Shown piece after piece: positions 2,854 through 37,451 of a stretch of 42,927 bases of DNA. The first letter of the stretch is position 1, and each line of letters starts with the position of its first letter. The notes under the pieces are model-generated. The model saw only the letters and a list, made by a program, of their open reading frames with translations. It had not been told where the DNA came from and did no database searches. Location: the NCBI GenBank assembly GCA_020049595.1, contig JAIFKL010000125.1:1-42927 (forward strand), read 5' to 3'. The stretch comes from Desulfobacteraceae bacterium (GTDB taxonomy: Bacteria > Desulfobacterota > Desulfobacteria > Desulfobacterales > JAIFKL01). Position numbers and translations under genes: made by a program.

Positions 2854-3348
2854 CTAATTCTGCTGCCCTTGTTTCGGAGGCGGGGGACCTTCAGGCATTT
2901 CATCGGCGCTGACAAAACCGTCGCCGTTTTTATCCAGAAGGGTGAAACGGTCAGGACGACCGGTAAACTCATCTTTCGACACCTTTCCGTCATTATTTTT
3001 GTCGAATTTCTGCATAAAATTCTGTCCCATACCCTGGGGACCTTCTCCGCCCAGGCGGGGCGGATTTCCCGGCTTTACTTCATCGGCGCTGATAAAACCG
3101 TCTGCGTTCTTATCCATACGGGTGAAATGCTCGGCGGGACCGACAAATTCCTCTTTCGACACTTTTCCGTCATTATCCTTGTCGAATTTCTGGATAAGAT
3201 GCTGTCCCATACCCTGCGGAGCCTGTCCGGCTCCGGGTGCGCTGCCCTCGTTTCCCTGAGGCTTGCCTTGCTGGGCAAAACTGCATACAGCGAAAACAAA
3301 CAGTATTGCCGACACGATAGCCAAACCTGCTTTAACCTTGAAACTCAT
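2854..3348 (-). CDS. Secreted EF-hand calcium-binding protein (two EF-hand pairs)
   Basis: Signal peptide LAIVSAILFVFAVCSFAQQ. Duplicated module FDKDNDGKVSKEEF ... DKNADGFISADE and FDKNNDGKVSKDEF ... DKNGDGFVSADE. ATG at 3348 preferred over TTG at 3354. Confidence 0.8.
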   Translation of the reverse strand: MSFKVKAGLAIVSAILFVFAVCSFAQQGKPQGNEGSAPGAGQAPQGMGQHLIQKFDKDNDGKVSKEEFVGPAEHFTRMDKNADGFISADEVKPGNPPRLGGEGPQGMGQNFMQKFDKNNDGKVSKDEFTGRPDRFTLLDKNGDGFVSADEMPEGPPPPKQGQQN

Positions 3349-3525
3349 CTTCAATTGCTTTTTCCTTTTCTGTTCAGTGTTAGAAAAAATGGACCTTATC
3401 TTATTAACAGTCGCAACTTTTTAAAAAAAAGTTACATAAAAGCGCAAAAAAAATGATTCCCGAAAAACTATCGGAAATCATTCTTTTTTCTGAAACACTC
3501 ATGTGACCGGCGGATGTTTTCCGAT

Positions 3526-3590
3526 AGGGCGGGCATTTTTCATGTCCGCCCTGCAACTATAGTAAGGCGGGCATGAAATGCCCACCTTAC
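3526..3590. repeat. Two adjacent hairpin words (GGGCGGGCAT and GTAAGGCGGGCAT families)
   Basis: AGGGCGGGCAT-TTTTC-ATGTCCGCCCT (3526-3552) and GTAAGGCGGGCAT-GAA-ATGCCCACCTTAC (3562-3590). Confidence 0.85.
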
Positions 3591-4281: not shown

Positions 4282-4397
4282 TTTTTCGCCACGAATGGAC
4301 ACGAATTTATCACGAATAAAAGAACGCTAATTTATTCAGAATGATTAATTCGTGCTTTTTAATTTGTGATAAATCCGTGTCCATTCGTGGCGAAAAA
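4282..4397. repeat. 32-bp inverted repeat (CACGAAT word family) just upstream of the kinase gene
   Basis: TTTTTCGCCACGAATGGACACGAATTTATCAC (4282-4313) against GTGATAAATCCGTGTCCATTCGTGGCGAAAAA (4366-4397), with one mismatch. Confidence 0.85.
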
Positions 4398-6056: not shown

Positions 6057-6701
6057 ATGGAAAAACGGCATATTCTCATTGTTGAAGATGAAACCAAAAT
6101 TGCCCGGCTGCTTGCCGATTATCTGAAAAATGCGGGCATTCCATATATCAGAAAACAGCCGCCGGATATGATGCTTTTGGATATTATGCTTCCGGGTATG
6201 GACGGGATGGAAATATGCAGGGAACTCAGAAAATTTTCAACCCTTCCTGTCATTATGATTACTGCCAAAGTGGAAGAAATTGACCGGCTTCTCGGACTGG
6301 GACTCGGCGCGGACGATTATATCTGCAAGCCTTTCAGTCCCAGAGAAGTGATTGCACGGGTCAAAGCCGTGCTGAGACGCTCCTATCCTGAATCCGAAGA
6401 GAAGAAAATTGTTGCGGGTCCCATCACATTGGATGAAAATACGCGGCTGGTAACCATCCACGATGCGGAATTGAAGCTGACGCCCAGCGAATTCGGGTTT
6501 CTGAAAATCCTGATGACAAATCCGAACCGTGTGTTTACCCGCAATGAATTGTTAGACAAAGTGCAGGGATATAATTTTGACGGATATGACCGCACCATTG
6601 ACACGCATATCAAAAATCTGCGGAAAAAAATTTCGGAAAGGCTGCCGGATCAGGAGATTATTATGACAGTTTACGGAGCCGGCTATAAATTTAATATTTA
6701 A
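6057..6701 (+). CDS. OmpR-family response regulator, BaeR-like
   Basis: Start at ATG 6057 (MEKRHILIVEDE), not ORF-track 5946. ITAKVEEIDRLLGLGLGADDYICKPFSPREV receiver motifs plus a winged-helix C-terminus (TVYGAGYKF). The receiver looks about 13 aa short between beta1 and the phospho-Asp (see findings). Confidence 0.85.
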   Translation: MEKRHILIVEDETKIARLLADYLKNAGIPYIRKQPPDMMLLDIMLPGMDGMEICRELRKFSTLPVIMITAKVEEIDRLLGLGLGADDYICKPFSPREVIARVKAVLRRSYPESEEKKIVAGPITLDENTRLVTIHDAELKLTPSEFGFLKILMTNPNRVFTRNELLDKVQGYNFDGYDRTIDTHIKNLRKKISERLPDQEIIMTVYGAGYKFNI

Positions 6702-6724
6702 TATTATAGGAGTTACGCAGTTCA

Positions 6725-6829
6725 GACCTCACCCCCCGGCCCCCCACCTCCCCCCCCGGCCCCCTCTCCGAAGGAGAGGGGGCGACTTCTGCTCCCCTCC
6801 CCTTCGGAGAGGGGGCCGGGGGTGGGGTC
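6725..6829. repeat. GC-rich nested palindrome (CCCCTCTCC-TTCG/GAAG-GGAGAGGGG word family)
   Basis: Outer inverted repeat GACCTCACCCCCCGGCCCCC / GGGGGCCGGGGGTGGGGTC. Inner hairpins GGCCCCCTCTCCGAAGGAGAGGGGGC and CCCCTCCCCTTCGGAGAGGGGG. Confidence 0.85.
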
Positions 6830-6938
6830 TCCGTTCCGTTCATAACGACATCGGAAAGTTAAATTGACAAAGTAAAATTAATTTATATTAAATTCACCTT
6901 ATGATTGACATTTTCTATCAATTCGGGCAAATTATTGG

Positions 6939-7008
6939 GAAGTGAGAATTGAGAATTGAGAAATCAACACTTCCTGTTTCTCAATTCTCAATTCTCAATT
7001 CTCAATTT
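6939..7008. repeat. Inverted heptamer pair (hairpin)
   Basis: (TGAGAAT)n at 6939-6963, loop TCAACACTTCCTG, (ATTCTCA)n at 6977-7008. Lies 20 nt upstream of the PrkA-like start. Confidence 0.9.
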
Positions 7009-7027
7009 ATCGGGAGTGTTAAAACTT

Positions 7028-9361
7028 ATGGAAAATATCAGAAATGCCATGCAGCATCTTGATCGCCGCATGAGCGAAAAAGACCAGCAGTCAACCATTA
7101 CTTATGAAGAATTTCTCAAAATTCTTTCCGAGAATCCCGGCACCGTCATCCGCAATGTTTTTCAGGTCTTTCACGACATGATTAAGAATTATATTTCCGA
7201 AGGCGTTGACGAGTATCCCAATGATCCCGAATCCATCAATTTTGTTTATTACGACTGCACCAATCTTTTTGTGGCTGACTCGGAAAATGCTTTTTATCAT
7301 CCTTTTTTTGCAGACAGACTGTTTGCCAACCGCCTGATCGGTCATGTGGAGGCTTTGAAGCGGGGCGCGCAGCAAAATAAGATTTACATTTTTGACGGCC
7401 CCCCCGGATGCGGAAAAAGCACATTTCTCAACAACCTGCTCATGAAATTTGAAGAATATGCCAATACCGAGAAAGGGATGCGCTATGAAGCGGTGTGGCG
7501 TTTGGATCGCAAAGTGCTGGGGAGTTTCTCAGATCATGAAGCGGCACCCATATTTGAAAAAATGTTCGGCATGATGGCGGATGAGTCTGACGGGTTTGCC
7601 AGAAAGCACGATCTGCTGCATCAGGAGCAGAAAGAGGTTTATGAAGAACAGACTTCTCCCTATTTTACCGATGATTACATTGAAATTCCCTGCCCCAGCC
7701 ACGATCATCCCATTCTGATGATCCCCAAGCAGCATCGCCGCGACTTTTTTAACGAACTGCTTCCCAACATCGAAATCAAGTGGAAAATTTTCACTGAAAA
7801 GGAATATGAATGGGTTTTCCGTGACAATCCCTGCACAATATGCAGTTCCCTTTACGATGCGCTGCTGAAAAAGCTGAAGGCGCCGCTGGAGGTTTTTAAG
7901 ATGCTCCATGCAAGACCCTACAGGTTCAACCGGCGTCTGGGAGAAGGCATCAGCGTGTTCAACCCCGGCGACAAGCCTTCAAGAGAGAATGTGCTGGGCA
8001 ATCCCATGATTCAGAAGCGGATCAACAGCCTTCTCAGAGACAGCAATCAGGTGAGATATCTTTTTTCCCGATATGCCAAAACCAACAGCGGCATCTACGC
8101 GCTCATGGACATCAAAACCCACAATATCGAGCGGCTGATAGAACTCCACAACATCATCAGCGAAGGGGTTCACAAGGTTGACGATATTGAGGAGAACGTG
8201 ACCTCGCTTTTCATGGCGCTGATGAATCCTGAAGACAAAAAAAATATTCAGGGACAATCCTTTTCGGACCGCATCGAATACATCGGCATTCCTTATGTGC
8301 TGGACCTGAGTACGGAAGTTGACATATACCGCAATATTTTCGGAAAGCATATTGAAGACAGCTTTCTGCCCAAAGTGCTGCACAATTTTGCACGGGTCAT
8401 TATTTCCTCGCGTCTGAACGTGAAATCGGAGGCAATGCTGGAATGGATTGAAAATCCGAGGAAATATGCCCGTTACTGCGATGAAAATCTGCAACTGCTC
8501 AAGATGGAAATTTACACGGGTTATATTCCGCCCTGGCTGTCGGAGGAGGACAAGAAGCGTTTTACGGCAAAACGCCGCCGCAGGATCATTGCGGAATCCG
8601 AAGCCGAAGGTCAGAAGGGCTTTTCGGGGCGTGATGCGATCAAGATTTTCAATGAGTTTTACTCTGCTTATGCCAGAGAGGACAGGCTCATCAATATGAA
8701 CACGCTGTGCAATTTTTTCACCAAAGTCCGCAAAGACCTCAGTGAGGCGATTCCCAAAGGTTTTTTGGACTCCATGCTTCACATGTATAACTACACGATT
8801 CTGCAAAGCGTCAAGGAATCCCTGTATTATTATAATGAGGAGCAGATTTCCAAAGACATTCAGAATTATATGTTCGGCGTCAATTTCGACATCGGCGCGG
8901 CGGAAACCTGCGCCTACACTGGCGAAAAATTGGAAATCACCGAAGCTTTTTTTGAAAGCATTGAGAATCGGCTGCTGGGCGCAAAAGTAACAAAGGATCA
9001 GCGTCTGTCTTTTCGGAAAGAAACGCAGAAGTCATATACTTATGATGCGCTGACCCGTGAAATTCTGCTTGAGGGAATGAAAATCACCGATACCAAACTG
9101 TATCAGTCCCTCTATGACCGCTATGTTTATAATCTGAAAGAAAAGGTGCTGGATCCTTTTCTTGAGAATGAGAATTTCCGAAAGGGTATAAAAGATTATA
9201 ATACCGACGGGTTCAAGACTTTCGACAAAAGGATTCAGGATGATGTCACTTTCCTGATAAACAATCTGTGTAAAAAATACAGATATTCGGAGCAGGGCGC
9301 GAAGGAAGTCTGTATCTATGTCATTGACAATGACCTTGCAAAGACATTCGCCAACCCTTAA
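7028..9361 (+). CDS. Divergent PrkA/YeaG-family AAA+ protein (putative Ser protein kinase family)
   Basis: Walker A FDGPPGCGKST. The order of motifs is colinear with my memory of E. coli YeaG (N-terminal EEFL region, DHP block, SRL block). Start ATG 7028 lies just after the heptamer hairpin; ORF-track TTG 6956 lies inside the repeat. Confidence 0.7.
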   Translation: MENIRNAMQHLDRRMSEKDQQSTITYEEFLKILSENPGTVIRNVFQVFHDMIKNYISEGVDEYPNDPESINFVYYDCTNLFVADSENAFYHPFFADRLFANRLIGHVEALKRGAQQNKIYIFDGPPGCGKSTFLNNLLMKFEEYANTEKGMRYEAVWRLDRKVLGSFSDHEAAPIFEKMFGMMADESDGFARKHDLLHQEQKEVYEEQTSPYFTDDYIEIPCPSHDHPILMIPKQHRRDFFNELLPNIEIKWKIFTEKEYEWVFRDNPCTICSSLYDALLKKLKAPLEVFKMLHARPYRFNRRLGEGISVFNPGDKPSRENVLGNPMIQKRINSLLRDSNQVRYLFSRYAKTNSGIYALMDIKTHNIERLIELHNIISEGVHKVDDIEENVTSLFMALMNPEDKKNIQGQSFSDRIEYIGIPYVLDLSTEVDIYRNIFGKHIEDSFLPKVLHNFARVIISSRLNVKSEAMLEWIENPRKYARYCDENLQLLKMEIYTGYIPPWLSEEDKKRFTAKRRRRIIAESEAEGQKGFSGRDAIKIFNEFYSAYAREDRLINMNTLCNFFTKVRKDLSEAIPKGFLDSMLHMYNYTILQSVKESLYYYNEEQISKDIQNYMFGVNFDIGAAETCAYTGEKLEITEAFFESIENRLLGAKVTKDQRLSFRKETQKSYTYDALTREILLEGMKITDTKLYQSLYDRYVYNLKEKVLDPFLENENFRKGIKDYNTDGFKTFDKRIQDDVTFLINNLCKKYRYSEQGAKEVCIYVIDNDLAKTFANP

Positions 9362-9364
9362 CTG

Positions 9365-9503
9365 AGGATTCTCAGGACGCAGAAGATGAAGAATGGGAAT
9401 ATTTTATGCTGACGCCGCCTTAGTCCTGAGAATCCTTATAAAAAAAGGTCAGGGGTTCGGGGTCAGAGGTCAGGCGAACCCCTGACCCCTAACCACTGAC
9501 CCT
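9365..9503. repeat. Two hairpin words
   Basis: AGGATTCTCAGGAC (9365-9378) / GTCCTGAGAATCCT (9423-9436). GGTCAGGGGTTCG ... CGAACCCCTGACC (9447-9487) with further GGTCAG repeats. Confidence 0.8.
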
Positions 9504-9513
9504 TAATAACTAT

Positions 9514-10686: not shown

Positions 10687-10876
10687 CCACGAAAATGCGA
10701 AAACCTATTTTTATGTTTTGGCGAAAAGCACGAAATATTTTTAACCATGAATTTTTTTTCGTGTTTTTCATAAATTTCGTGCTTTCGTGGTAAAAAAGAG
10801 AACCACGAAAACACGAAAGCAGCGAAAAGCACGAAAAATAATTTCGTGGCTTTCATTAATTTCGTGCTTTCGTGGT
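10685..10876. repeat. CACGAAA-word palindromes
   Basis: AACCACGAAA...TTTCGTGCTTTCGTGGT appears twice. The element starts at the stop codon of 9514-10686. Confidence 0.8.
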
Positions 10877-12190: not shown

Positions 12191-12751
12191 CTAAATAACA
12201 GTTTTTGTGGAAAAAAAGGAGAATTTTTCATCAATTTCCCTGAAATCGAATTCTATGGGCTGACTGGCTTTTTTAGCCATGTCAATAAAGCCGAGACCTG
12301 CGCCTTTGCTTTTGTCATCGGGTCCCTTTTTGCGCTGTTCTTTGTAAAATTTTTTCAGTTCTTCTTTGTCCATTTTCTGTAGCCGGGTCAGGCGCTCCGT
12401 GAGTCTTTCAACATCTTCTTTGTGAATACGGTTTCCGCACAGCACAAAATAATGTTCGCCTTCATAACCCACCGCAATGATACCGATGCTCAGTTCATCC
12501 TGTTTTTCGCTTCCGGGCAGAATTTCTTTGGGACATTTTTCAGCAGAATAATGGATAACATTCTGCGCCTGCTCCACAACCATGGAGAAAACTCTGAGCG
12601 CAACGGAGTTGTGGGCTTCTTCCAATTCCATTTTCAGTTTCAGCGTCGCGCCGATTTCCACGAGCAGATCCTGTGAAACCGGACCGCTGAAACAAAAGAA
12701 AATTCCCCGCCTGTTGAGGTCATTTTTGAAATCATAAAGATTTTGCAACAT
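12191..12751 (-). CDS. SiaB-like protein kinase (anti-sigma-type GHKL fold)
   Basis: N-terminus LYDFKNDLNRRGIFFCFSGPVSQDLLVEIG and C-terminal GAGLGFIDMAKK, typical of SiaB-family kinases. ATG 12751 has GAGGGAG about 8 nt upstream; ORF-track start is 12775. Confidence 0.8.
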   Translation of the reverse strand: MLQNLYDFKNDLNRRGIFFCFSGPVSQDLLVEIGATLKLKMELEEAHNSVALRVFSMVVEQAQNVIHYSAEKCPKEILPGSEKQDELSIGIIAVGYEGEHYFVLCGNRIHKEDVERLTERLTRLQKMDKEELKKFYKEQRKKGPDDKSKGAGLGFIDMAKKASQPIEFDFREIDEKFSFFSTKTVI

Positions 12752-12778
12752 ATTCATACTCCCTCTTTTAAACATGAA

Positions 12779-12844
12779 AACAAGTTGCAGGTAACAGGTT
12801 GCAAGATAACCTGTTACATGTTACCTGTTACATGTAACTTGTTT
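12779..12844. repeat. CAGGT-word palindrome between the siaB-like and siaC-like genes
   Basis: AACAAGTTGCAGGTAACAGGT ... ACCTGTTACATGTAACTTGTT. Confidence 0.8.
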
Positions 12845-13244: not shown

Positions 13245-13428
13245 ATTGAGAATTGAGAATTGAGAATTGAGAATTGAGAAAGGTTTCTCGCATCTATTTT
13301 TAGCCTTGGCGCAGAGATTGCAAAGTTTTTTTTATAAAAAGAGTTTTTCTTTGCGCCCTTTGCGCCAAGGCTAAAAATAGATGCGAGACATTATTTAGAA
13401 TTGACAATTCTCAATTCTCAATTCTCAA
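13245..13428. repeat. Three-layer nested palindrome capped by heptamer arms
   Basis: (TGAGAAT)5 at 13245-13281 / (ATTCTCA)3 at 13408-13428. Inner inverted repeat 13283-13312 / 13362-13389 (GGCTAAAAATAGATGCGAG word). Core CTTTGCGCCC word with a TTTTTATAAAAA centre. Confidence 0.9.
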
Positions 13429-15689
13429 AATCCGAACCCGATAACGGTCATATCGTCTCTTTGTTCTTCATCGCCTTTCCATGCCATATATGCTTCTCTT
13501 ATGAGCCTCTTCTGTTCATCAAAAGATTTTTCCCGCATTTCTTTCAGCAGGGAACGAAAGCGTTTGTTTCCGAAAGGAAGATGTCCAGGTCCCCCGGGCT
13601 GATCCGTGATGCCGTCTGTTGCCATATAAAATGACATGCCCTCCTGAATCGGAATCTGATGATTGCTGAAATTGAAATCAGGATTTGCGTCTTTATATCC
13701 GATGCTATGCCTGTCGCCTCTGATAATCCTGAGCGTATCCCCCGACGAGGTATATGCCAGCGCGGTTTTTGCGCCTGCAAAGGTCAGGATTCCGGTTTTC
13801 ACATTCATAAAAACGATGCCCGCATCCATACCGTCATCAGAACCGGCAGTTTTTTCATCAGAAGAATATAAAGAGGTTTTGACCGCAGCATTCAGAGATT
13901 TCAATATTTGCGAGGGATCATTGTAATAATCTTTCTGAATGATTTCTTTAAAAGCGGTTCCGGCAAGCATGGTCATCAGCGCGCCCGGAATGCCGTGACC
14001 CGTACAGTCTATCAGCGCCATCAGCCAGCCTTCCGGAAATTCCTCAAAGAAATATATGTCGCCGCCCACAATATACTTGGGTTCGTCTATGATGAAACAG
14101 TGCTTCAGACACCTGTTTATCGCGGCTTCGGAGGGCAGAAGCGAGCGCTGGATGCGTTCAGCGTAGCGGATATTTTCCAGAATATGCTTGTTGGCATATT
14201 CCACCTGTTCAAGACTTGCCCGCAGTTCCCCGGTTCTTTCTTCCACAATTTCTTCCATCATCTGTGTGGCTTCTTCCTGCGCTGCAAAAGCCTCATGCCG
14301 GACTTTCAATATTTTCTCATAAGCCGCCAATTTTTCTTTGCGTTCAGCATTGATTCGGTCTGCCAGCCCCAGCCCCAGCAGAATGACTAACATCGCGGAA
14401 CCGATCTGCATGACATAAGCTGTTAAAAGATTGCTTGGCAAAATGCCGAAAGATTTCAAAGCGTAAAAAATCGCCCCGATGCCGAAGCAGCACCATGCAA
14501 TCATAAAATATTTGGCAACACGATGCCCCGTTTTCAGACAGAAAAGCCCCGTCAGCAGCACTGCCCCCACTAACGGCATGATACATATCACCGCTATTTT
14601 CACGCTCAGACTGTAACTGCTCAGAATTAAGGAAAACACGGCGCTTGCAGCCGCAGCAGTTGAAAAAATGTTAAGGAGACTGTCCATGCGGGGCATGGCG
14701 ATTTCGGTTTTCAGAAAAGCCCGGGTAAACTGTGCAATCCATAAGCCTGTGAATGCGATAAAAAAAGGAATGCTGCGATTGAACCACCAGGGCAGTTCTG
14801 ACCACAGATATTGGTATCCTTCACCGCTCAGGGACAGTTGAAAAAGCGTGTAACTGATGATGTACAGAATGTAAAAAAGATAGCTTCTGTCCCGGATCGA
14901 AACAAACAGAAAGAAATTGTAACATGCCATTGCCAGCATGATGCCGTAATAAATTCCGGACACAAACTGTTCTGCCGTCACTTTTTCGGCAAAAGCTGCC
15001 GGGGACCAGAGCGTAAAGGAAAATTCCATTGTTCCGGCAGTTCTGATGCGGAAATACAGGGTTTGCGGAGTTCCATGCCTCATGTTTACCCGGAATACAA
15101 AATGATGATGTCTGATATCCCGGTGCCGGAAAGGCAGCATATCTCCGCCGCGGCTGAGAACAAACCTTTTTTGCCATTCCTGTTTTCCGTTATGAACGGG
15201 GAACCAGCATTCCACATCATCTAAAAGCGGATAGTGTTCTTCCAGAAACCATTCTTTTTTTTCCGTTGTAAAACGACCCGGCTTAAAATCGTCCAACTTG
15301 TTTTGCTCATCTGTAAAACGAGTTTTCAACTCGTTTTGATAATCCAGCGTCAATCTGATCCAGTAAACTGAATCTGTATAGCCGAAATTCTGCACCTGCG
15401 AACCGCTTTCGACAAATTTTTCGGAAAATTCATCCGAGGCCACATCATTGACAGACCATTGACCGGCTTTATCTTCCAGATATGCGATGTGATGCCCCAG
15501 CGGATATTTATCCGTGAAGTCATTCAGAACTGCCGGCTTTTGCGCTCCGACAACTGACACAGGCGTCAAAAAAATCAGAAAAAGACAGAGGAAAAGAGAA
15601 GTGAGAAATGAGAAGTGAGAAATGCCGTTTTTTAATAAGACGGCTCTTTCCCTTTTCCCGCTTCTCAATTCCCGCTTTTCAATTCTCAT
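13425..15689 (-). CDS. SiaA-type PP2C (SpoIIE) phosphatase with 7TMR-DISM extracellular and 7-TM input domains
   Basis: Periplasmic 7TMR-DISMED2-like region, seven predicted TM helices, a coiled coil, then PP2C motifs (GGDIYFF, IDCTGHGIPGA, DDGMDA, ATDGITDQ, DDMTVIGFGF). ATG 15689 is chosen; GTG 15722 is an alternative. The stop TGA is the first unit of a heptamer array. Confidence 0.85.
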   Translation of the reverse strand: MRIEKRELRSGKRERAVLLKNGISHFSFLTSLFLCLFLIFLTPVSVVGAQKPAVLNDFTDKYPLGHHIAYLEDKAGQWSVNDVASDEFSEKFVESGSQVQNFGYTDSVYWIRLTLDYQNELKTRFTDEQNKLDDFKPGRFTTEKKEWFLEEHYPLLDDVECWFPVHNGKQEWQKRFVLSRGGDMLPFRHRDIRHHHFVFRVNMRHGTPQTLYFRIRTAGTMEFSFTLWSPAAFAEKVTAEQFVSGIYYGIMLAMACYNFFLFVSIRDRSYLFYILYIISYTLFQLSLSGEGYQYLWSELPWWFNRSIPFFIAFTGLWIAQFTRAFLKTEIAMPRMDSLLNIFSTAAAASAVFSLILSSYSLSVKIAVICIMPLVGAVLLTGLFCLKTGHRVAKYFMIAWCCFGIGAIFYALKSFGILPSNLLTAYVMQIGSAMLVILLGLGLADRINAERKEKLAAYEKILKVRHEAFAAQEEATQMMEEIVEERTGELRASLEQVEYANKHILENIRYAERIQRSLLPSEAAINRCLKHCFIIDEPKYIVGGDIYFFEEFPEGWLMALIDCTGHGIPGALMTMLAGTAFKEIIQKDYYNDPSQILKSLNAAVKTSLYSSDEKTAGSDDGMDAGIVFMNVKTGILTFAGAKTALAYTSSGDTLRIIRGDRHSIGYKDANPDFNFSNHQIPIQEGMSFYMATDGITDQPGGPGHLPFGNKRFRSLLKEMREKSFDEQKRLIREAYMAWKGDEEQRDDMTVIGFGF

Positions 15690-17489: not shown

Positions 17490-17504
17490 TCTTCCTCCCG
17501 GAAA

Positions 17505-17556
17505 AGAATTGAGAATTGAGAATTGAGAATTGAGAAATAATTCTCAATTCTCAATT
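17505..17556. repeat. Inverted heptamer pair with a 3-nt loop
   Basis: (TGAGAAT)4 followed by TAA and (ATTCTCA)2, between the yicC stop and the remA start. Confidence 0.9.
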
Positions 17557-18436
17557 ATTCAATATTCTGAACCTGTTCTCTGATTTTTTCAAGTTCGGAT
17601 TTAAGGGCAACGATGATATGAGAAATATCCACATTTCCCGATTTGGATCCCATCGTGTTAAATTCCCGGTTAAATTCCTGCAAGAGAAAATTGAGTTTCC
17701 GGCCCGGGGCCTCTTCCGAGTCCATAATCAAACGAAACTGCCGGATATGGCTTCTGGCTCTGAGGATTTCTTCGGAAATATCGCTTCGGTCCGCAAGAAA
17801 AGCAGCTTCCTGTGCAATCCGTGAGGGATCAATCTCGGTGATGCCACGGGTTAAGGCTTCGATGCGCTCTTTCAGACGTTCCTGATAATAAAACACAAGA
17901 TCGCCGGCTTTTTTTTCGATTTCATTCATACTTTCAGCGATATACGCAAGGCGGGCGGTAAAATCTCCGGCAATAAATTCCCCCTCCTTTTTCCGCATGG
18001 CATTGAGTTCGGCGATTGCACCGCTGATGCAGTCCCGGATTTCGGGCCAGCGTTTTTCGGCATCCGTATCAGTTTCTGCCGGTCTTATAATGCCCCCAAG
18101 CCCTGCCAGAAGTTCCAGAGAGATGTCCGTATGAATGCCGAACATCTCTTTCAACTGTAGCAGCGCCTGATGATATGCTGCCGCTTTTGCCTCTCTGACT
18201 TCAAAAATGCAGGCTTCTTCAGCATCATCTTTTATGTGTAATTTAATTTCTATCCTGCCTCTTGTCACTTTTTCTGAAATCAGCGATTTGATTTTTTCTT
18301 CGAGCGCAATATAACTTTGGGGAATACGCAGAACAAGATCGAGGTATCTGCTGTTGTAAGAACGGGCTTCAACTCTGATTTCCATGTTCTCCGTTATCTG
18401 TTCCGCCCGTGAAAAAGCTGTCATGCTTTTTATCAT
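17555..18436 (-). CDS. yicC: YicC-family stress-induced protein (YicC_N + DUF1732)
   Basis: MIKSMTAFSRAE start and C-terminal LLQEFNREFNTMGSK motif. The yicC-remA-gmk order is a common operon. Confidence 0.85.
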   Translation of the reverse strand: MIKSMTAFSRAEQITENMEIRVEARSYNSRYLDLVLRIPQSYIALEEKIKSLISEKVTRGRIEIKLHIKDDAEEACIFEVREAKAAAYHQALLQLKEMFGIHTDISLELLAGLGGIIRPAETDTDAEKRWPEIRDCISGAIAELNAMRKKEGEFIAGDFTARLAYIAESMNEIEKKAGDLVFYYQERLKERIEALTRGITEIDPSRIAQEAAFLADRSDISEEILRARSHIRQFRLIMDSEEAPGRKLNFLLQEFNREFNTMGSKSGNVDISHIIVALKSELEKIREQVQNIE

Positions 18437-19774: not shown

Positions 19775-20785
19775 ATGAGCAGTAATTTTAAAATTCAACA
19801 TAAAGAAAATGTCTTGTTTCCGGAAATGATTGCAGAAAAAACAATCAGTTTGGAAAGTCGCAGGTATATTGGAAATAAATCAAAGCTGACCGGTTGGATT
19901 TTTGAAAATATCTTGAACGAAACTGCTGAAATAAATACTTTTTTTGATGTGTTCGCAGGAACGGCAAGCATTGCGAAAGCAGCAATAAAATACTTCAAAA
20001 AATTGATAATAAATGATATTTTGTATTCAAATGCCATTATTTACAAAGCATTTTTTGAAAAAAGCCGGTGGAATAAAATAAAAATTGAAAAATTGTTGAA
20101 TGGCTATAATTCAATTGATCCCGATATGTTGACCGATAATTATTTTTCCGAAAATTTCGGGAATAAATTTTTTGACAACCAAAATGCAAAATTAATCGGT
20201 TTTATCAGAGAAGATATTGAAAAACAGAAAACGGATTTAACAGAAAAAGAATACAGTATTTTATTGGCAACTCTGATTTATAATATTGATAAAATTGCAA
20301 ATACTGTCGGACATTTTGACGCTTACATAAAAAAACCGATTAAATATCGTCAATTGGAATTAAAATTAATTGAATCCGTAGAATTTGAACATATTGAAAT
20401 TTATAGAGAAGACGCAAATAAATTGGTCAGAAATTTGCGGGCAGACCTTGCATATATTGACCCGCCTTATAATTCAAGACAATACAGTCGTTTTTATCAT
20501 ATATACGAAACGCTCGTAAAGTGGGACAAACCGCCTTTATTCGGCGTTGCTTTGAAACCCGAAACCGAAAATATGAGTTTATATTGCACAGTAAAAGCAA
20601 AAGACACTTTTAAAGATTTAATTGAAAATCTGAATGTCAGATATATTGCTGTTTCTTATAACAATACATATAAATCGAAGAGCAATTCATCGGAAAATAA
20701 AATTAAATTGGAATATTATATAAATATATGCAGCCTAAAATTCAAATTTTGTCAAATACAAATTTCGCTCTTGCAGATGTTTTAA
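19775..20785 (+). CDS. N6-adenine DNA methyltransferase, D12 (Dam-like) class
   Basis: Motif I FDVFAGTASIA and motif IV IDPPYNSRQY, then SYNN. The gene is very AT-rich. Its 3' end overlaps the next gene by 58 nt. Confidence 0.85.
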   Translation: MSSNFKIQHKENVLFPEMIAEKTISLESRRYIGNKSKLTGWIFENILNETAEINTFFDVFAGTASIAKAAIKYFKKLIINDILYSNAIIYKAFFEKSRWNKIKIEKLLNGYNSIDPDMLTDNYFSENFGNKFFDNQNAKLIGFIREDIEKQKTDLTEKEYSILLATLIYNIDKIANTVGHFDAYIKKPIKYRQLELKLIESVEFEHIEIYREDANKLVRNLRADLAYIDPPYNSRQYSRFYHIYETLVKWDKPPLFGVALKPETENMSLYCTVKAKDTFKDLIENLNVRYIAVSYNNTYKSKSNSSENKIKLEYYINICSLKFKFCQIQISLLQMF

Positions 20786-21669
20786 AAAGCGAATTTGTTG
20801 AAAGTACATCAGTAAAAATCGCTGTGGCTTTTTTACGTAGAACAGGTTTGGATTATTTATATAAAAGCTTAGATTATGCTTTAACTGTAAATAATGCGAA
20901 AGTTGAATTTATTGTTGGTTTAGATTTTAAAACTACTGACGCAGAAGCATTAACCGCTTTAAATGAAATAAAAAGTAACTATACAAATTTTGAATTTTAT
21001 TGTTTTGGAGATAAAAGAGATAATCATAATGATTTAATATTTCATCCTAAAATATATATGTTTCATACAGAGCTTTCAAAAGGAACAAAGTATAGCTCTG
21101 TTGTCGGTTCTTCAAATTTCACAGGTGGTGGTTTAACTACAAATTTTGAAGTAAATACCATTTTCAGAGAATACAAACCTATATATTATAATCAATTAAG
21201 TGCTATTTATGATGAAATAAAATATACTGATAGTATCTTTCAGCCTTCAAAAAATTACATAAATAAATATAAAAATATAAAAGAAGAATTAGATAAATCA
21301 GTAAAAAAAATAATTGATATTGATGTTAAAGAAGAACTTATTGAATTAAAACAAGAAGAATTAAACTTACCCGGAACAATTCCTTCGATAAACTTGATGA
21401 TTATTAAATTTATTAAAGAAAAAAATAAGCAAGGTTTAGAATTTGTTTCTTTAAAAGATATTTATATTGAACTTGAAAATCAAATTAAACAAAGAAATCT
21501 TGAAGGCAAATATAAATTAGATACTTTCAGAAATACAATCAGGGGTGAGTTAAATACAAATGAAATAAATAGCGGACACAAAAACAATAAAAAATTATTT
21601 ATTCGTTCAAATGATAAAAATGCTTTTTATAAACTATCAGAAAATGGTATAAATTATAAAGGAAGATAA
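20728..21669 (+). CDS. PLD-family (HKD) nuclease, putative restriction endonuclease, with a C-terminal winged-helix-like domain
   Basis: Single HxK...GSxN motif (HPKIYMFH...VVGSSNFT), as in Nuc/BfiI-type nucleases. Lies adjacent to the methyltransferase and is AT-rich. Confidence 0.75.
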   Translation: MQPKIQILSNTNFALADVLKSEFVESTSVKIAVAFLRRTGLDYLYKSLDYALTVNNAKVEFIVGLDFKTTDAEALTALNEIKSNYTNFEFYCFGDKRDNHNDLIFHPKIYMFHTELSKGTKYSSVVGSSNFTGGGLTTNFEVNTIFREYKPIYYNQLSAIYDEIKYTDSIFQPSKNYINKYKNIKEELDKSVKKIIDIDVKEELIELKQEELNLPGTIPSINLMIIKFIKEKNKQGLEFVSLKDIYIELENQIKQRNLEGKYKLDTFRNTIRGELNTNEINSGHKNNKKLFIRSNDKNAFYKLSENGINYKGR

Positions 21670-22417: not shown

Positions 22418-25400
22418 ATGCGCTTTAAGAATCTGAAATTAGCGACAAAGCAGGGGCTTGCTTTCGGTTTTATCCTTGTGATCATGGCAGGCGTAACCGT
22501 TTTTTCCCTGCTGAAAATGTCCGCGCTCAAAGATGAGATTGACAGAGTGAATACCAAACGGCTGCCCGGAGTGATCGCTGTTTCCGAAATTAATTTCAAT
22601 ACTTCCGAGTACCGCATCAATGAAATGCAGCACGCACTGACCTATTACGGATACAAGATGCGGGAGCAGGAACAGATGATGCTGGGCCTCAAGACGAAAA
22701 TTGAAAAAAATCAGGAGGTTTATCAGCCGCTCATCACATCTCCCGAAGAACAGACGCTGTATTCCGAGTTTCAGGAAAAATGGGGGCGTTATTTAGAAAT
22801 GCACGAGCAGTTCATGAAACTTTCCCGTGACAGCAAAGACGAAGAAGCCCTTACGCTGCTCAATGAGGAAGCCTATAAACTGTTCAGAGATTTCAGCGCA
22901 AATCTGGAAGGGCTTGTCAAGCTGAACAAAGAAGCCTCGTTTGAAGCTGCACGCCGCGCCGAAGAGACCTACCGCTCCGCCCGCACGGTGACAACGGTGC
23001 TGCTGGCGATGACCGTACTGATGTCAACACTGATCACCCTGGTGCTGGTACGCACGATTACCATACCCATCCGGCAGTTGGAACGGGCTGCCAAAAGTGT
23101 TGCCGAGGGCAACGTCAATGTGAGTCTCGATATTCAGACACAGGAAGAAATCGGCAATCTGGCAAGATCATTCAACCGCATGACCGATTCACTCCGTGAG
23201 GCAAAACAGGAAAATGAAAAACAGGACTGGTTTAAGAGCGGTCAGAACGAACTGAATGAAAAAATGCGGGGAGATCAGGATGTGCAGACCCTTGCCCGCA
23301 ATGTGATTACCTGTCTGTCAAAATATCTGGGTGCGCAGATCGGCGCGCTGTATCTGGTTTCAGACGGGGAAAACGGGGAAAACACAGAAATGAAACTTGC
23401 CGGAACTTACGCCTTTGCCAAGCGCAAAAGTCTGGGCGACATCATCCGCATCGGCGAAGGATTGGCAGGGCAGGCGGCTTTTGAAAAGGAAATCATTTCT
23501 GTTACGGATGTTCCCCAAGACTACATCCGAATTGCCTCGGCAATCGGCGACACTCATCCCCGCAACATCATGGTTTCACCATTTTTGTATGAAGGCAGGT
23601 TGGTCGGTGTGGTCGAACTGGGAACTTTTGCGGAATTTACCGACAGGGAAATGGAGTTCCTGAAATATGCCATGGAAAATATTGCCATCGGCTTTAATTC
23701 TGCCCGGTCCCGGGACAAAATCGCCTTTCTCCTCAAGGAATCGCAGCGTCAGGGCTCAGAACTCAAGATTCAGCAGGAAGAACTCCGAGCCACCAATGAA
23801 GAACTGGCAGAGCAGCGGGACGCGCTCAGGCTGTCGGAAGCGCAGTTGAAATCCCAGCAGGAAGAGCTTCAGGCTGCCAATGAGGAATTGGAAGAAAAAA
23901 CCCAGTATCTGGAGAAACAGCAGATTGAGATTACCGAAAAGAATGTTGCGCTGGAAATTGCCCGGAATGACATTGAAAAGAAGGCAAAAGAATTGGAAGT
24001 GACCAGCAAATACAAATCCGAATTTCTTGCCAATATGTCTCATGAACTTCGCACGCCGCTCAACAGTATGCTCATTCTTGCCCGGAGTCTGGCGGACAAC
24101 AAAGAGGAAAATCTCAGCGAAGATCAGTCCGAATCTGCCCGGATTATTTACAAAAGCGGAAATGATCTGCTCAAACTCATCAATGAGATTCTGGACCTTT
24201 CCAAAATCGAAGCCGGCAAAATGTCGGTCAATATTGAAAAAGTTTTGCTCCAAGATGTTGCGGACAGCCTTCATGCCAATTTCAAGCATGTCATTGCCGA
24301 TAAGGGCTTGACGCTCGCTATCCGATTGGATGAGCATATCCCGGAATATATGGAAACCGACTCTCAGCGTTTGGAACAGATTATCAAAAATTTTATGTCC
24401 AATGCGATCAAGTTTACGGAAAAAGGCGAAATCACGTTTTCTGTTCACACACCTGAACCGGAGACCGATCTGTCCCGCAGCGGTCTGAATCGGCAGGATG
24501 CCATTGCCTTTTCGGTCAGCGATACGGGCATCGGTATTCCGGAAGACAAGCTTCTTGATATTTTTGAAGCGTTCCAGCAGGTTGACGGAAGCACTTCCCG
24601 GAAATACGGCGGCACCGGACTGGGGCTTTCCATTTCCCGTGAACTGGCAAAACTGCTGGGCGGTGAGATTCAGTTGAAAAGCGAAATGGGAAAGGGTTCG
24701 ACGTTTACACTCTATCTCCCCGGTTCAAGTAAGGTGGGCAGCTTGCTGCCCACCAAACAGAAAACCGCAGAGGTTCAGGCTTCGTGTAAGGCGGGCAGCG
24801 TTCGACTGAGCGCGGCAGTTGAGCCTGCCGAAACTCACGCCGAAGTCAAGCTGCCCGCCAAACAGAAAACCACAGAGGTTCAGGCTTCGGGTAAGGTGGG
24901 CAGCAAGCTGCCCACCCTACGGAAAATAACAGCCCCTGCCCCTTCACCCGGCGACAGGTGCATTCTGATTATCGAAGAGGATGCGGATTTTGTAAAGGTG
25001 CTGTCCGCGCAATGTTCGCAGAAAGGTTTCAAAGCGGTGGTATGTGCCAGCGGGGAGGAAGGATTGCAGTTGGCGGAAAAGCAGCGGCACGAGGCGATTA
25101 TTCTGGATATACGGCTTCCCGGCATGGATGGCTGGGCGGTTCTGGAGCGGCTCAAGGCAAATCCCGAAACCCGTCATATTCCGGTGCATATCATTTCGGC
25201 TGAGGAAGTCAGTCTTGATGCGCTCAAAAAAGGTGCCGTCGGTTTTCTCACAAAACCGGCTGAAAAAGAAGCTTTGGACGCGGCTTTCCGCAAACTCGAA
25301 AGCTTTATCGAGAAAAACATCAAAGACCTGCTGGTGGTGGAAGATGATGAAAACCTGCGGAAAAGCATCAGAAAACTGATCGGCAACGGCGATGTGAAAA

Positions 25401-26122
25401 TCACCGAAGCCGCCAGCGGCAAAGATGCGCTGGATGCCCTCCTGAACAGACAATTCGACTGTATGGTGCTGGACCTGGGGCTGCCGGATATGACCGGTTT
25501 TGAACTGCTCAGTATGCTGAAAAATGAAAAAGGAATCAATATCCCGCCGGTTATTGTCTATACAGGGAAAGACCTTAGCCGTGAAGAGGAAGAGCAACTG
25601 CGGGGCTATGCGGAGGCGATCATTGTCAAAGGTGTGAAATCCGAAGAACGCCTGCTGGATGAGACGACCCTGTTTCTGCATCGGATTGTCAGCAATATGC
25701 CGCAGAAAGAGCAGAAAGTTATATGCAACCTTCAGGATAAAGACAGCGTTTTCAAAAACAAGAGAATTCTTTTGGCAGACGACGACATGCGGAATGTCTT
25801 TGCCATGTCCAAAATTCTGCGGGAAAAAGGAATGGAGATAGTTAAAGCGGAAGACGGCGCGAAAGCATTGAAAGTGCTGGAACAGGAGCCGGGCATTCAT
25901 CTGGTGCTGATGGATATTATGATGCCGATCATGGACGGATATGAAACCATGAAAAAAATCCGGGAGCAGGAGCGATTTGCGAAACTGCCGATTATTGCCT
26001 TAACCGCAAAGGCAATGAAAGGCGACAGAGAAAAATGTATCGAATCGGGCGCAAGCGATTATCTGGCAAAACCCGTTGACATGGAAAGACTGCTGTCAAT
26101 GATGCGGGTGTGGATGTATTAA
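22418..26122 (+). CDS. Hybrid sensor histidine kinase (4HB_MCP-like sensor, HAMP, GAF, coiled coil, HisKA, HATPase, repeat-derived linker, three receiver domains)
   Basis: H-box ANMSHELRTPLNS. HATPase motifs DTGIGI and GGTGLGLSI. Three receivers (ILDIRLPGMDG, VLDLGLPDMTG, LMDIMMPIMDG). No Hpt domain. Confidence 0.9.
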   Translation: MRFKNLKLATKQGLAFGFILVIMAGVTVFSLLKMSALKDEIDRVNTKRLPGVIAVSEINFNTSEYRINEMQHALTYYGYKMREQEQMMLGLKTKIEKNQEVYQPLITSPEEQTLYSEFQEKWGRYLEMHEQFMKLSRDSKDEEALTLLNEEAYKLFRDFSANLEGLVKLNKEASFEAARRAEETYRSARTVTTVLLAMTVLMSTLITLVLVRTITIPIRQLERAAKSVAEGNVNVSLDIQTQEEIGNLARSFNRMTDSLREAKQENEKQDWFKSGQNELNEKMRGDQDVQTLARNVITCLSKYLGAQIGALYLVSDGENGENTEMKLAGTYAFAKRKSLGDIIRIGEGLAGQAAFEKEIISVTDVPQDYIRIASAIGDTHPRNIMVSPFLYEGRLVGVVELGTFAEFTDREMEFLKYAMENIAIGFNSARSRDKIAFLLKESQRQGSELKIQQEELRATNEELAEQRDALRLSEAQLKSQQEELQAANEELEEKTQYLEKQQIEITEKNVALEIARNDIEKKAKELEVTSKYKSEFLANMSHELRTPLNSMLILARSLADNKEENLSEDQSESARIIYKSGNDLLKLINEILDLSKIEAGKMSVNIEKVLLQDVADSLHANFKHVIADKGLTLAIRLDEHIPEYMETDSQRLEQIIKNFMSNAIKFTEKGEITFSVHTPEPETDLSRSGLNRQDAIAFSVSDTGIGIPEDKLLDIFEAFQQVDGSTSRKYGGTGLGLSISRELAKLLGGEIQLKSEMGKGSTFTLYLPGSSKVGSLLPTKQKTAEVQASCKAGSVRLSAAVEPAETHAEVKLPAKQKTTEVQASGKVGSKLPTLRKITAPAPSPGDRCILIIEEDADFVKVLSAQCSQKGFKAVVCASGEEGLQLAEKQRHEAIILDIRLPGMDGWAVLERLKANPETRHIPVHIISAEEVSLDALKKGAVGFLTKPAEKEALDAAFRKLESFIEKNIKDLLVVEDDENLRKSIRKLIGNGDVKITEAASGKDALDALLNRQFDCMVLDLGLPDMTGFELLSMLKNEKGINIPPVIVYTGKDLSREEEEQLRGYAEAIIVKGVKSEERLLDETTLFLHRIVSNMPQKEQKVICNLQDKDSVFKNKRILLADDDMRNVFAMSKILREKGMEIVKAEDGAKALKVLEQEPGIHLVLMDIMMPIMDGYETMKKIREQERFAKLPIIALTAKAMKGDREKCIESGASDYLAKPVDMERLLSMMRVWMY
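24729..24920. repeat. Word-type palindromic/direct-repeat element inside the hybrid kinase ORF
   Basis: GGTGGGCAGC-TT-GCTGCCCACC (24733-24754). GGTGGGCAGC-AA-GCTGCCCACC (24894-24915). Direct repeat CAAACAGAAAACCRCAGAGGTTCAGGCTTCGKGTAAGGYGGGCAGC occurs twice. GGCGGGCAGC / GCTGCCCGCC inverted repeat. This is the same GTAAGGYGGGCA word seen at 3562-3590. Confidence 0.8.
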
Positions 26123-26189
26123 TTGAGAATTGAGAATTGAGAATTAAACACTGTCTATTTCTCAATTCTCAATTCTCAATTCTCAATTT
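26120..26189. repeat. Inverted heptamer pair (hairpin) between the hybrid kinase gene and cheR
   Basis: The TAA stop overlaps the first unit. (TGAGAAT)3, loop AAACACTGTCTA, (ATTCTCA)4. The cheR ATG follows 2 nt later. Confidence 0.9.
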
Positions 26190-30079: not shown

Positions 30080-30162
30080 GTTGCAGGTTACAGGTTGCAG
30101 GTTGCAGGTAGCAGGTTACATGCTACATGCAACTTGTAACCTGCTACCTGCTACCTGCTACC
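30080..30162. repeat. CAGGT-word palindrome upstream of ilvE
   Basis: GTTGCAGGTTACAGGTTGCAGGTTGCAGGTAGCAGGTTACATG ... CATGCAACTTGTAACCTGCTACCTGCTACCTGCTACC. Confidence 0.85.
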
Positions 30163-30189: not shown

Positions 30190-31254
30190 ATGCAAATCAC
30201 GATTACAAAAGCAAAAGACCTCAAACCCAAGCCGGATGAATCCAATCTCGGTTTCGGAACATTTTTTACAGATCACATGCTGCTGATGGATTACAATCCG
30301 GACAAGGGATGGCATCTGCCCCGTATTGAACCGTTTTCCCCTTTTGAAATGTCCCCTGCGACCATGGTTCTGCACTACGGACAGGCAGTATTTGAAGGGC
30401 TGAAGGCATATCGGACTGCTGCCGGCAAAATACAGCTTTTTCGGCCCAAAGCCAATTTTGCGCGCATGAACCGTTCCTGTGAGATGCTTTGCATTCCCCC
30501 GATTGACGAATCGCTTCTCACGGCTTCGCTGAAAGACCTGCTGAAGCTTGAAAAAGACTGGGTTCCCAGAGTCCCGGGCACCTCTCTTTATATACGTCCC
30601 ACGATTATTTCAACCGATCCCTATCTCGGAGTGCGGGCGTCGAAAACCTATCGTTATTTTGTCATTCTCTGTCCTGTGGGCGCATATTATGCCGCAGGCT
30701 TCAACCCTGTGAAAATATGGGTGACAAAAAATTATGTCAGGGCAGTTCGCGGGGGCATCGGCGAGGCAAAAACCCCGGCAAACTATGCGGCAAGCCTGTA
30801 CGCCGGAGAAAGGGCAGGCAAAAACGGTTATGCTCAGGTTTTGTGGTTGGACGGCGTGGAACAGAAATATGTGGAAGAAGTGGGTTCCATGAATATCTTT
30901 TTTGTCATTGACAATGAACTCGTCACGCCAATGCTCAACGGCAGCATTCTTCCGGGCGTTACACGGGATTCCGTCATTGCGCTGGCAAAACACTGGAAGC
31001 TGAAAGTTTCGGAGCGGAAAATCAGCATTGACGAAGTGATGAATGCTCATGACGCGGGAAAACTTCAGGAAGTTTTCGGATCCGGCACCGCGGCGGTGAT
31101 TTCGCCGGTAGGCGAGATGAAATACGGGGACCGGATCATCCAAATCGGCGGCGGCAAGGTCGGTCCCGTAGCGAACAAATTTTTCAAATCTATTCAGGAT
31201 ATTCAGTACGGCAAAGCTGAAGATCCCATGGGATGGATTGAGCCGGTTTGTTAG
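30190..31254 (+). CDS. ilvE: Branched-chain amino acid aminotransferase
   Basis: 354 aa. LGFGTFFTDHM, HYGQAVFEGLKAYR, AKTPANYAASL and EVGSMNIFF motifs. Confidence 0.9.
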   Translation: MQITITKAKDLKPKPDESNLGFGTFFTDHMLLMDYNPDKGWHLPRIEPFSPFEMSPATMVLHYGQAVFEGLKAYRTAAGKIQLFRPKANFARMNRSCEMLCIPPIDESLLTASLKDLLKLEKDWVPRVPGTSLYIRPTIISTDPYLGVRASKTYRYFVILCPVGAYYAAGFNPVKIWVTKNYVRAVRGGIGEAKTPANYAASLYAGERAGKNGYAQVLWLDGVEQKYVEEVGSMNIFFVIDNELVTPMLNGSILPGVTRDSVIALAKHWKLKVSERKISIDEVMNAHDAGKLQEVFGSGTAAVISPVGEMKYGDRIIQIGGGKVGPVANKFFKSIQDIQYGKAEDPMGWIEPVC

Positions 31255-31320
31255 AATTGAGAATTGAGAATTGAGAAATACCGTTTTTAATAAGATGGCT
31301 CAATTCTCAATTCTCACTTA
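31253..31320. repeat. Inverted heptamer pair with the conserved centre CCGTTTTTAATAAGATGGC
   Basis: It abuts the ilvE TAG stop. The centre is nearly identical to that of 15624-15644. Confidence 0.9.
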
Positions 31321-31352
31321 TATATTATCTCTTGCAACTGAAAACTGACAAA

Positions 31353-37273: not shown

Positions 37274-37451
37274 GTAGGGCGGACAAAGCGAAGCGTGTCC
37301 GCCATGCAATGCTGAAATGCTAAAATTTCGCCTGGCGGCTCATTTCAGCACTCCGCTTCGGAACTTTCCGGAGTGCTGAAATGAGCGAAGCGAAATTTTA
37401 GCACTGCACCGATACTGGCATGGCGGACATGCTGCGCTTTGTCCGCCCTAC
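37274..37451. repeat. Three-layer nested palindrome
   Basis: 34-bp inverted repeat 37274-37307 / 37418-37451 with 2 mismatches. Inner GCTGAAATGCTAAAATTTCGC / GCGAAATTTTAGCACTGC. Innermost GCTCATTTCAGCACTCCG / CGGAGTGCTGAAATGAGC (37338-37386). Confidence 0.9.

Follow-up and report, generated by a model that had tools for sequence, protein, structure and literature searches.

How does a block of palindromic DNA come to lie within a signalling gene, and is it the same kind of DNA that otherwise occupies intergenic spacers? The question is raised by a 42,927-nucleotide (nt) stretch of a Desulfobacteraceae bacterium (GenBank assembly GCA_020049595.1, contig JAIFKL010000125.1, positions 1 to 42,927), called the window here, in which a hybrid histidine kinase carries a 192-nt palindromic segment between its HATPase_c domain and its first receiver. 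An earlier note, made from the sequence alone, described the segment as an in-frame insertion of one palindromic word element and likened it to the Rickettsia palindromic elements (RPEs). The segment is very probably a pile-up of small selfish hairpin repeats, which have colonized the unconstrained tether between kinase core and receiver and are translated as a disordered linker. It is lineage-specific, in frame and built from dispersed palindromic families, with different members occupying the site in relatives. Comparison loci and proteins are given below by L and P numbers, respectively.

Anatomy of the linker segment

The kinase comprises, in the order assigned by Pfam, the domains 4HB_MCP, HAMP, GAF, HisKA, HATPase_c and three receivers. 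The earlier note placed about 64 codons of unusual sequence between HATPase_c and the first receiver, and this is borne out. The segment opens at the second base of codon 771, closes at the first base of codon 835 and remains in frame between those two domains (table 1). It contains three GTA[A/G]GG-YGGGCAGC hairpin units, A and B forward and C inverted. These are repetitive extragenic palindromes (REPs) with the consensus GTAG-GGTGGGCAGC-TT-GCTGCCCACC. Units in the kinase are 26–30 nt long, with stems of 10–14 base pairs (bp) and a loop of 2 nt. Units A and B are tagged GTAA and unit C is tagged CTAC; the 5' end of unit C also carries GTAAGG, giving a 14-bp stem. Both perfect 10-bp-stem palindromes described previously are present (24733–24754, loop TT; 24895–24916, loop AA), as is the longer inverted repeat, GGCGGGCAGC (24790–24799) and GCTGCCCGCC (24850–24859), with 50 nt between its arms. 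A direct repeat is likewise present, but its length is 55 nt at 93% identity (24745–24799 and 24850–24904) rather than the 45 nt first given. The outermost 26-nt arms of the segment are 96% complementary and lie 140 nt apart.

That the segment is repeat-derived stands; that it is a single inserted element does not, since at least two repeat families and a duplicated spacer contribute to it. A block made of a REP and a 31-nt spacer occurs twice, and the loop of the second REP is occupied by a nested mini-element. The successive blocks measure 57, 105 (57+48) and 30 nt, each divisible by three. A repeat origin is demonstrable for ~130 of the 192 nt. The remaining 62 nt are the two spacers, which may be a remnant of the old linker; a diverged homologue of the spacer is found after the second hairpin of the linker in L002, one of the nearest relatives. 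Composition sets the segment apart: nowhere in the gene is G+C higher (0.60, compared with 0.49 for the remainder of the gene and 0.447 for the window). The word GGYGGGCAGC occurs six times in the window, always within 24733–24916, where 0.11 occurrences are expected and none of 100 shuffles reaches six.

At the protein level, an AlphaFold2 model of amino acids (aa) 641–971, built from a 41-sequence alignment, gives a predicted local distance difference test (pLDDT) score of ~90 for HATPase_c and the first receiver. Residues 771–836 (131–196 of the modelled fragment) score below 50 and have no secondary structure, and they coincide with the repeat-derived stretch. The REP unit is open in five of its six frames, the closed frame being the one that reads G followed by TAG. 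The kinase reads its units in RVGSLLPT-type and VGSKLPTL-type frames, and predicted linker peptides include VGSLLPTK and LSAAVEPAETHAEVK. No RNA-seq run was found to contain the region, and transcription and translation of the linker are predicted from the intact frame. A phmmer search of the linker peptide against 1.84 billion representatives returned one irrelevant repeat protein and no other family sharing the peptide. A word-index protein search with the 80-aa linker produced no matches; it missed even near-identical orthologues and is therefore uninformative.

Table 1. Coordinates of the kinase, its linker components and related intergenic hairpins in the window.
Feature	Position	Strand	Basis
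Hybrid histidine kinase open reading frame (ORF), 1234 aa	22418–26122	+	ORF list, translation, Pfam domains
HATPase_c, aa 648–768, stops just 5' of linker	24359–24721	+	Pfam PF02518, E = 5e-30; AlphaFold2 pLDDT ~90
Composite palindromic segment, 192 nt, 64 codons, inverted GTA[A/G]GGTGGGCAGC arms at ends	24729–24920	+	arm pairing, fold z, AlphaFold2
REP unit A, GTAAGGTGGGCAGC-TT-GCTGCCCACC, 26 nt, GTAA tag, 10-bp stem, TT loop	24729–24754	+	family word matches; hairpin; copies in L092, L002 and DZCT01
31-nt spacer copy 1, encodes KQKTAEVQAS	24755–24785	+	without dispersed copies
REP unit B left half, GTAAGGCGGGCAGC, 14 nt	24786–24799	+	C/G variant co-varies with right arm
Nested palindromic mini-element, 45–50 nt, occupies unit B loop	24800–24849	+	copies at L121 and L124; metagenome depth; folds
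REP unit B right half, GCTGCCCGCC, 10 nt	24850–24859	+	family word matches; inverted-repeat pairing
31-nt spacer copy 2	24860–24890	+	within 55-nt direct repeat, 93% identity
REP unit C, GTAAGGTGGGCAGC-AA-GCTGCCCACCCTAC, 30 nt, inverted, AA loop, 3' CTAC tag	24891–24920	-	arm pairing; copies in L067 and L110
First receiver, start from ~aa 848	24959–25330	+	AlphaFold2 strand E208–212 of fragment, pLDDT >90; ILIIEED motif aligned in all homologues
Two adjacent intergenic family hairpins, AGGGCGGGCA..TGTCCGCCCT and GTAAGGCGGGCA-TGAAA-TGCCCACCTTAC	3528–3590		family scans
Intergenic inverted pair of AAGCGAAGCG-loop subtype, GTAG-GGCGGACA...TGTCCGCC and inverted partner ...CTAC	37274–37451		same subtype in L001 kinase linker

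A dispersed GTAG-tagged family and turnover at the linker

The motif that the earlier note recognized in the intergenic hairpin at 3562–3590 is the 12-mer GTAAGGYGGGCA, which is found on both arms of that hairpin; six matches occur at up to one mismatch, against 0.19 expected. Four related intergenic hairpins lie in the window (3528–3550, 3566–3586, 37278–37303 and 37422–37447), and the copy beginning at 37274 is tagged GTAG. Exact copies are found at other loci. Unit C is matched over 30 of 30 nt at L067 5440–5469 and L110 5350–5379, and unit A over 26 of 26 nt at L092 2057–2082. Directly after the cheR stop in L002, positions 14672–14697 are GTAGGGTGGGCAGCTTGCTGCCCACC, a 26 of 26 nt match to unit C; the 22-nt hairpin core there (14676–14697) is identical to the core of unit A and to many copies in DZCT01, a sister metagenome-assembled genome (MAG). 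A scan for GGYGGGCAGCNNGCTGCCCRCC with one genome per species returned at least 113 stretches, many of them unrelated and in high-GC genomes. Among the matches listed, DZCT01 carries the oriented hairpin class on at least 19 contigs, and a second MAG carries it on two. The class is treated as one oriented 26-nt unit because loop TT goes with a 5' GTAG and loop AA with a 3' CTAC.

The DZCT01 loci examined amount to 92.7 kb and show the character of the family. Tags of GTAG or GTAA (5') or of CTAC or TTAC (3') accompany 25 of 26 GGYGGRCA-loop-TGYCCRCC hairpins, and the majority of copies fall outside long ORFs. The loops belong to the subtypes GC-TT-GC, TGAAA (the window copy at 3566), TGGCTTTTTA and AAGCGAAGCG (window 37278 and 37422). 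Inverted dimers are common (L011, L071, L079, L093, L041, L097, L001 5726/5764 and window 37278/37422). An ORF of L069 (1029–1841) was considered as a second coding REP and rejected for want of a Pfam match and for its implausible peptide; it is probably spurious. The identical 26-nt GTAG-tagged unit is also present, partly as inverted doublets, in high-GC Comamonadaceae, Competibacteraceae and other MAGs (L041 5451–5511, L113, L082, L083, L050, L076 and L097). Possible explanations for a REP shared across distant phyla are horizontal transfer of a system comprising the REP and its REP-associated tyrosine transposase (RAYT), or bin contamination. A separate, unrelated palindrome family was noted in Clostridia, where many MAG contigs start or end with GATTTT-GGTGGGCAGCTCGCTGCCCACC-AAAATC at nt 18–41 (L031, L032, L045, L098, L054, L086 and others), which could mark the end of a repeat at which assemblies break.

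The family falls within the published definition of GTAG-tagged REPs, which are stem-loops of 20–40 bp (PMC3733652). Its 26–30-nt units share with them a GTAG tag at one end, multi-copy status (the copy number being that of the sister MAG), a mainly extragenic location, frequent close pairing in opposite orientation and occasional intragenic copies. Intragenic GTAG REP dimers and clusters that encode 20–82 aa are already published, and a location in flexible linkers has been proposed for them (PMC3733652). Di Nocera, De Gregorio and Rocco (2013, BMC Genomics 14:522; PMC3733652) describe a GTAG-7 dimer at aa 589–612 of the Stenotrophomonas maltophilia sensor histidine kinase Smlt4296. The present case differs in its GGYGGGCAGC stem family and uncultured Desulfobacterales host, in forward coding units tagged GTAA instead of GTAG, in the second element nested within one loop, and in the different repeat content of sister lineages at the same site.

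Other known systems are less close. REPIN-RAYT systems (Bertels and Rainey 2011, PMC3116915) share the property that an inverted REP pair can form one long hairpin, and the family has inverted doublets at other loci. In the kinase, however, the outer arms are held apart by other material, no doublet duplicated as a unit was found (of the 192-nt block, just the REP arms and the inner core recur), a cognate RAYT was not detected (a weak test) and transposition is putative. RPEs are ~100–150-bp units confined to Rickettsia, and every one of them has its conserved peptide; RPE-4 and RPE-6 are CGTC-tagged (PMC10969869). The parallel drawn by the earlier note survives as a functional likeness, in that a palindromic insertion lies in frame in a functional gene, adds a peptide tolerated by the fold and is confined to a lineage. 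The units here are 26–30 nt long and GTAG-tagged, the 192-nt block is not repeated whole and the host is Desulfobacterales-related; host and tag (GTAG as opposed to CGTC) place the segment outside the RPEs and nearest to the GTAG-tagged REPs. Miniature inverted-repeat transposable elements are 70–300 bp long, with terminal inverted repeats and a target-site duplication, and are repeated as a unit. The segment does not conform to this pattern despite its 26-nt terminal inverted arms, and no direct repeat is visible in its flanks (GGTTCAA^ and ^GGAAAAT, a caret marking the junction here and below).

The history of the site is read from its nearest relatives. The closest proteins are P0001 of L003 (99% identity), P0002 of L001 ('Desulfobacteraceae bacterium IS3'; 95%) and P0003 of L002 (86%), and the next is at 67%; nucleotide identities of the gene are 98.9% without gaps (L003), 94.8% (L001) and 87.2% (L002). 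Divergence and indels in the gene are concentrated in the linker. Identity within the linker windows falls to 0.73 for L001 and 0.45–0.50 for L002, and the linker contains 14 of the 23 alignment gap columns against L001 and all 98 against L002. Among 109 homologues, the HATPase-to-receiver linker has a median length of 59 aa (interquartile range 54–65), and a DDR-like motif stands just 5' of the receiver in 98. The linkers of the query clade are 78–102 aa long and are without the motif. Alignment with orthologues, the check proposed by the earlier note, confines the segment to one lineage, and no family hairpins are found in the linkers of the syntenic outgroups L004 and L005. The picture of a simple insertion adding 64 codons is right as to frame, but the ancestral linker was mostly displaced. 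The repeats largely replaced it, with a net gain of ~20 aa, because the clade linkers exceed the norm by only ~20–40 aa and the DDR motif is lost.

Repeat content at the site differs from lineage to lineage. The query and L003 share the order REP, spacer, REP with mini-element, spacer, REP. L001 retains unit B with its insert, one spacer and unit C, and the 3' 135 nt of the segment (unit B to unit C) are present there at 96% identity. The difference is limited to the first block: the left boundary (GGTTCAAG^) is as in the query, and an inverted AAGCGAAGCG-subtype unit and a truncated head replace unit A and spacer 1. In L002 the linker is flanked by heptamer-word arms, (GRGGTNN)n, at 12308–12335 and, inverted, at 12565–12585. 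Between these arms two decayed REP units surround a palindrome with 28-nt arms. The heptamers are the words of intergenic hairpins in L002 and at window 9452–9472. Since they bracket the L002 linker, intergenic words too can occupy the kinase linker. The broader proposition that word elements can invade coding DNA is supported by the exact intergenic matches, the lineage-restricted linker content and the L002 arms.

Heptamer words are widespread. Nearly every intergenic spacer in the window has a hairpin with tandem heptamer arms (AATTGAG, GGTTGCA, GGGGTCA/GGGGTTC or CACGAAT-like), at 26121–26188, 6934–7007, 17504–17559, 31250–31326, 30080–30162, 12778–12844, 9444–9504, 4282–4397, 10750–10843 and 13246–13428. 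One of these hairpins is immediately 3' of the kinase stop codon and another has 80-nt arms. The words resemble the short tandemly repeated repetitive (STRR) heptamers of cyanobacteria. In L005 the linker contains (CCCCAAG)x3 in frame at ~12310–12340, and L002 has a (GGGGTTC)n run at the gmk/remA junction (7344–7373). Coding DNA at other sites, too, may thus be entered or bordered by heptamer words.

The kinase heads a kinase-cheR-cheB-RR/SpoIIE cluster, a gene order common to L001, L002 and L005 (a 62% orthologue). Two further features of the neighbourhood were observed. Between Trm112p and the kinase (19775–21669), the window and L003 have a Dam-like MethyltransfD12 ORF and a PLDc_2-like ORF; this pair suggests an inserted restriction-modification or defence-like module because it is absent from the syntenic L002. 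Within the kinase, a patch in the HisKA-HATPase_c interval (24218–24368) shows 82% identity to L003 against 99–100% over the remaining gene. Against L002 it likewise ranks second-worst among the windows (0.74), and it is probably a recombination tract.

The nested mini-element

The piece in the loop of unit B has a distribution of its own. In contigs of four microbial-mat metagenomes, depth over 24812–24848 is 9–35 times that of the flanks, and at least eight different flanks are seen, several of them REP arms. A scan with the 21-nt core of the mini-element identified two related copies. The copy in L121 is intergenic, with convergent genes on either side, and an unrelated stem holds it in its loop. 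The copy at L124 6798–6842 is in the opposite orientation and lies in frame within nadD (6375–7103; nicotinate-nucleotide adenylyltransferase). The nadD products of L124 and P0121 have a 15-aa insert, FGVSFGRLNCRSVKR, after a conserved R(P/A)G; an orthologue at 90% identity (P0122, L125 and L126) lacks it, as do all others. The nucleotide insert measures exactly 45 nt, and empty (GGGCGG^GCTGCGG) and filled (GGGCAG[45 nt]GCTGCGG) sites can be compared directly. In all three contexts the mini-element is flanked by ..CAG(C) and GCTG.. and occupies the middle of a small palindrome. Its own predicted fold is a hairpin of -47.3 kcal/mol on the minus strand (z = -6.4) and -39.3 kcal/mol on the plus strand (z = -4.4). 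By this comparison the mini-element behaves as a discrete insertion at nadD.

Rfam searches of L121 and L124 at the gathering score gave no match to the mini-element. Inspection by eye led to rejection of a hammerhead-ribozyme core (CUGAUGA core misfit) and of an integron attC site (misfit of the R' and R'' boxes). An exact 21-mer of its core also occurs in other, higher-GC organisms (L122 ~1088–1230 and L123 ~3332–3470), with several GGTTTCGACAGGCTCAACC-like words nearby; these stretches may belong to a distantly related repeat family.

REP hairpins are named as insertion targets by Tobes and Pareja (2006, as cited in PMC3116915), and IS1111 is found in a QMITE2 GTAG REP (PMC10969869). Like such REP-targeting elements, the mini-element occupies the middle of a REP hairpin, as it does of other small palindromes, and shows presence/absence polymorphism. 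It differs in being far too small to encode anything, and neither a target-site duplication nor a mobilizing enzyme was identified. Tentatively, it might represent an undescribed class of ultra-small mobile palindrome that targets the centres, CAG(C)^GCTG, of REP loops, terminator-like hairpins and short palindromes within ORFs such as nadD. The linker would then be a recurrent landing pad layering at least four repeat families: GTAG REPs, heptamer-word hairpins, the 28-nt-arm palindrome and the mini-element. If this is true, each layer makes fresh hairpin targets for the next, as well as new peptide sequence. Very small, nested dispersed repeats were reportedly described in cyanobacteria by Elhai et al. 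in 2008 and may be comparable. If any parts of this account are new, the likeliest are the nested mini-element and the landing pad of several families.

Origin of the segment and its meaning

The mechanism envisaged for the pile-up of selfish hairpins has several steps. (i) Units would arrive as single-strand hairpins transposed in the REP/REPIN manner, with a RAYT-like HUH transposase as the presumed agent. (ii) They would then be reshuffled by slippage, duplication and conversion among family members. (iii) The mini-element would have entered the REP hairpin at its CAGC^GCTG centre. (iv) Selection would only have removed events that disrupted the reading frame or the receivers. The role of the peptide would be that of a flexible tether and nothing more.

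Several observations weigh against this account. The 43-kb window holds just four other family hairpins, and multi-copy status is seen in the sister MAG and in metagenomes rather than in the organism's own genome. No RAYT or other transposase was found by HUH/Y-NP motif in all loci examined or by Pfam in REP-adjacent ORFs and the left part of the window, a weak test that covers a small fraction of any genome. The 31-nt spacers, 62 of the 192 nt, have no dispersed copies, and a clean empty site for the REP units is seen in no allele of the kinase. Finally, paired T/A and C/G variants preserve arm complementarity, and could point to structure selected in place.

This last observation leads to an alternative explanation, that the hairpins are kept for action in cis in mRNA or DNA, with their repeat origin secondary. 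They might serve as a translational pause at the domain boundary, as an RNase processing or stabilizing site that sets the kinase core apart from the receivers, or in binding of gyrase or integration host factor. The structure predicted is very stable: the single-strand fold of the region compared with dinucleotide shuffles gives z = -8.4 as DNA and -6.5 as RNA. A hairpin-rich linker is kept in three lineages (z = -6.2 in L002), and RNA-element roles are reported for REPs elsewhere (PMC3733652). The sequence and arrangement of the palindromes vary by lineage, however, and the fold in L001 is weak (z = -2.4). Such structure is absent from most homologues; the linkers of the two outgroups fold like their shuffles (z = -2.0 and +1.0). 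Several arms are decaying: unit C has C/A in L003 and G/T in L001, and decay affects both units of L002. At the element there is no candidate for a terminator-like T-run or a promoter-like site, so that an intrinsic terminator or internal promoter is rejected, and an Rfam search of 24650–25000 with E up to 10 recovered no credible family. A cis-acting function as the reason for the segment is accordingly considered unlikely.

A very improbable explanation is that the linker is an ordinary fast-evolving one, in which local tandem duplication took place, palindromes arose where they stand and likeness to intergenic hairpins is coincidental. Exact matches of 26–30 nt to intergenic units of another genome, including the tag and the orientation-specific loop, argue strongly against coincidence, as do the 12-mer held in common with hairpin 3562–3590 and the occurrence of the inner 45–50-nt piece at unrelated loci. 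In its favour are the tandem duplicate block of 55–57 nt, the general variability of linkers of this kinase family in length and sequence, and the lack of dispersed copies of the spacers. An assembly artefact, in which repeat k-mers were mis-threaded into the kinase gene during metagenome assembly, is scarcely credible: short-read contigs do break within the linker, but the arrangement is the same in an independent Joint Genome Institute assembly (L003), the 3' 135 nt recur in L001, Logan contigs from separate runs span 24509–24841, 24812–24920, 24786–25300 and 24891–25300, and the reading frame is intact in every version. A 138-nt 'joint' of 24754 to 24893 in metagenome run X3 was rejected as a kinase allele because only 28 nt support it on one side; it is most likely another REP doublet locus.

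The probable colonization of the tether by selfish hairpins provides a well-resolved case, outside the Proteobacteria and Rickettsia, of extragenic palindromes predicted to be translated, although the phenomenon itself is already documented in other bacteria. Three sister lineages with different repeat content at one tether constitute a natural time series of selfish hairpin DNA remodelling a linker while the flanking domains are conserved. The locus also serves as a warning. In repeat-rich genomes, the linkers that join the domains of multidomain signalling proteins can derive from repeats and can break short-read assemblies, and such linkers should not be taken for conserved motifs. The mini-element, with its clean filled and empty sites in nadD, offers a tractable handle on the movement of very small palindromes.

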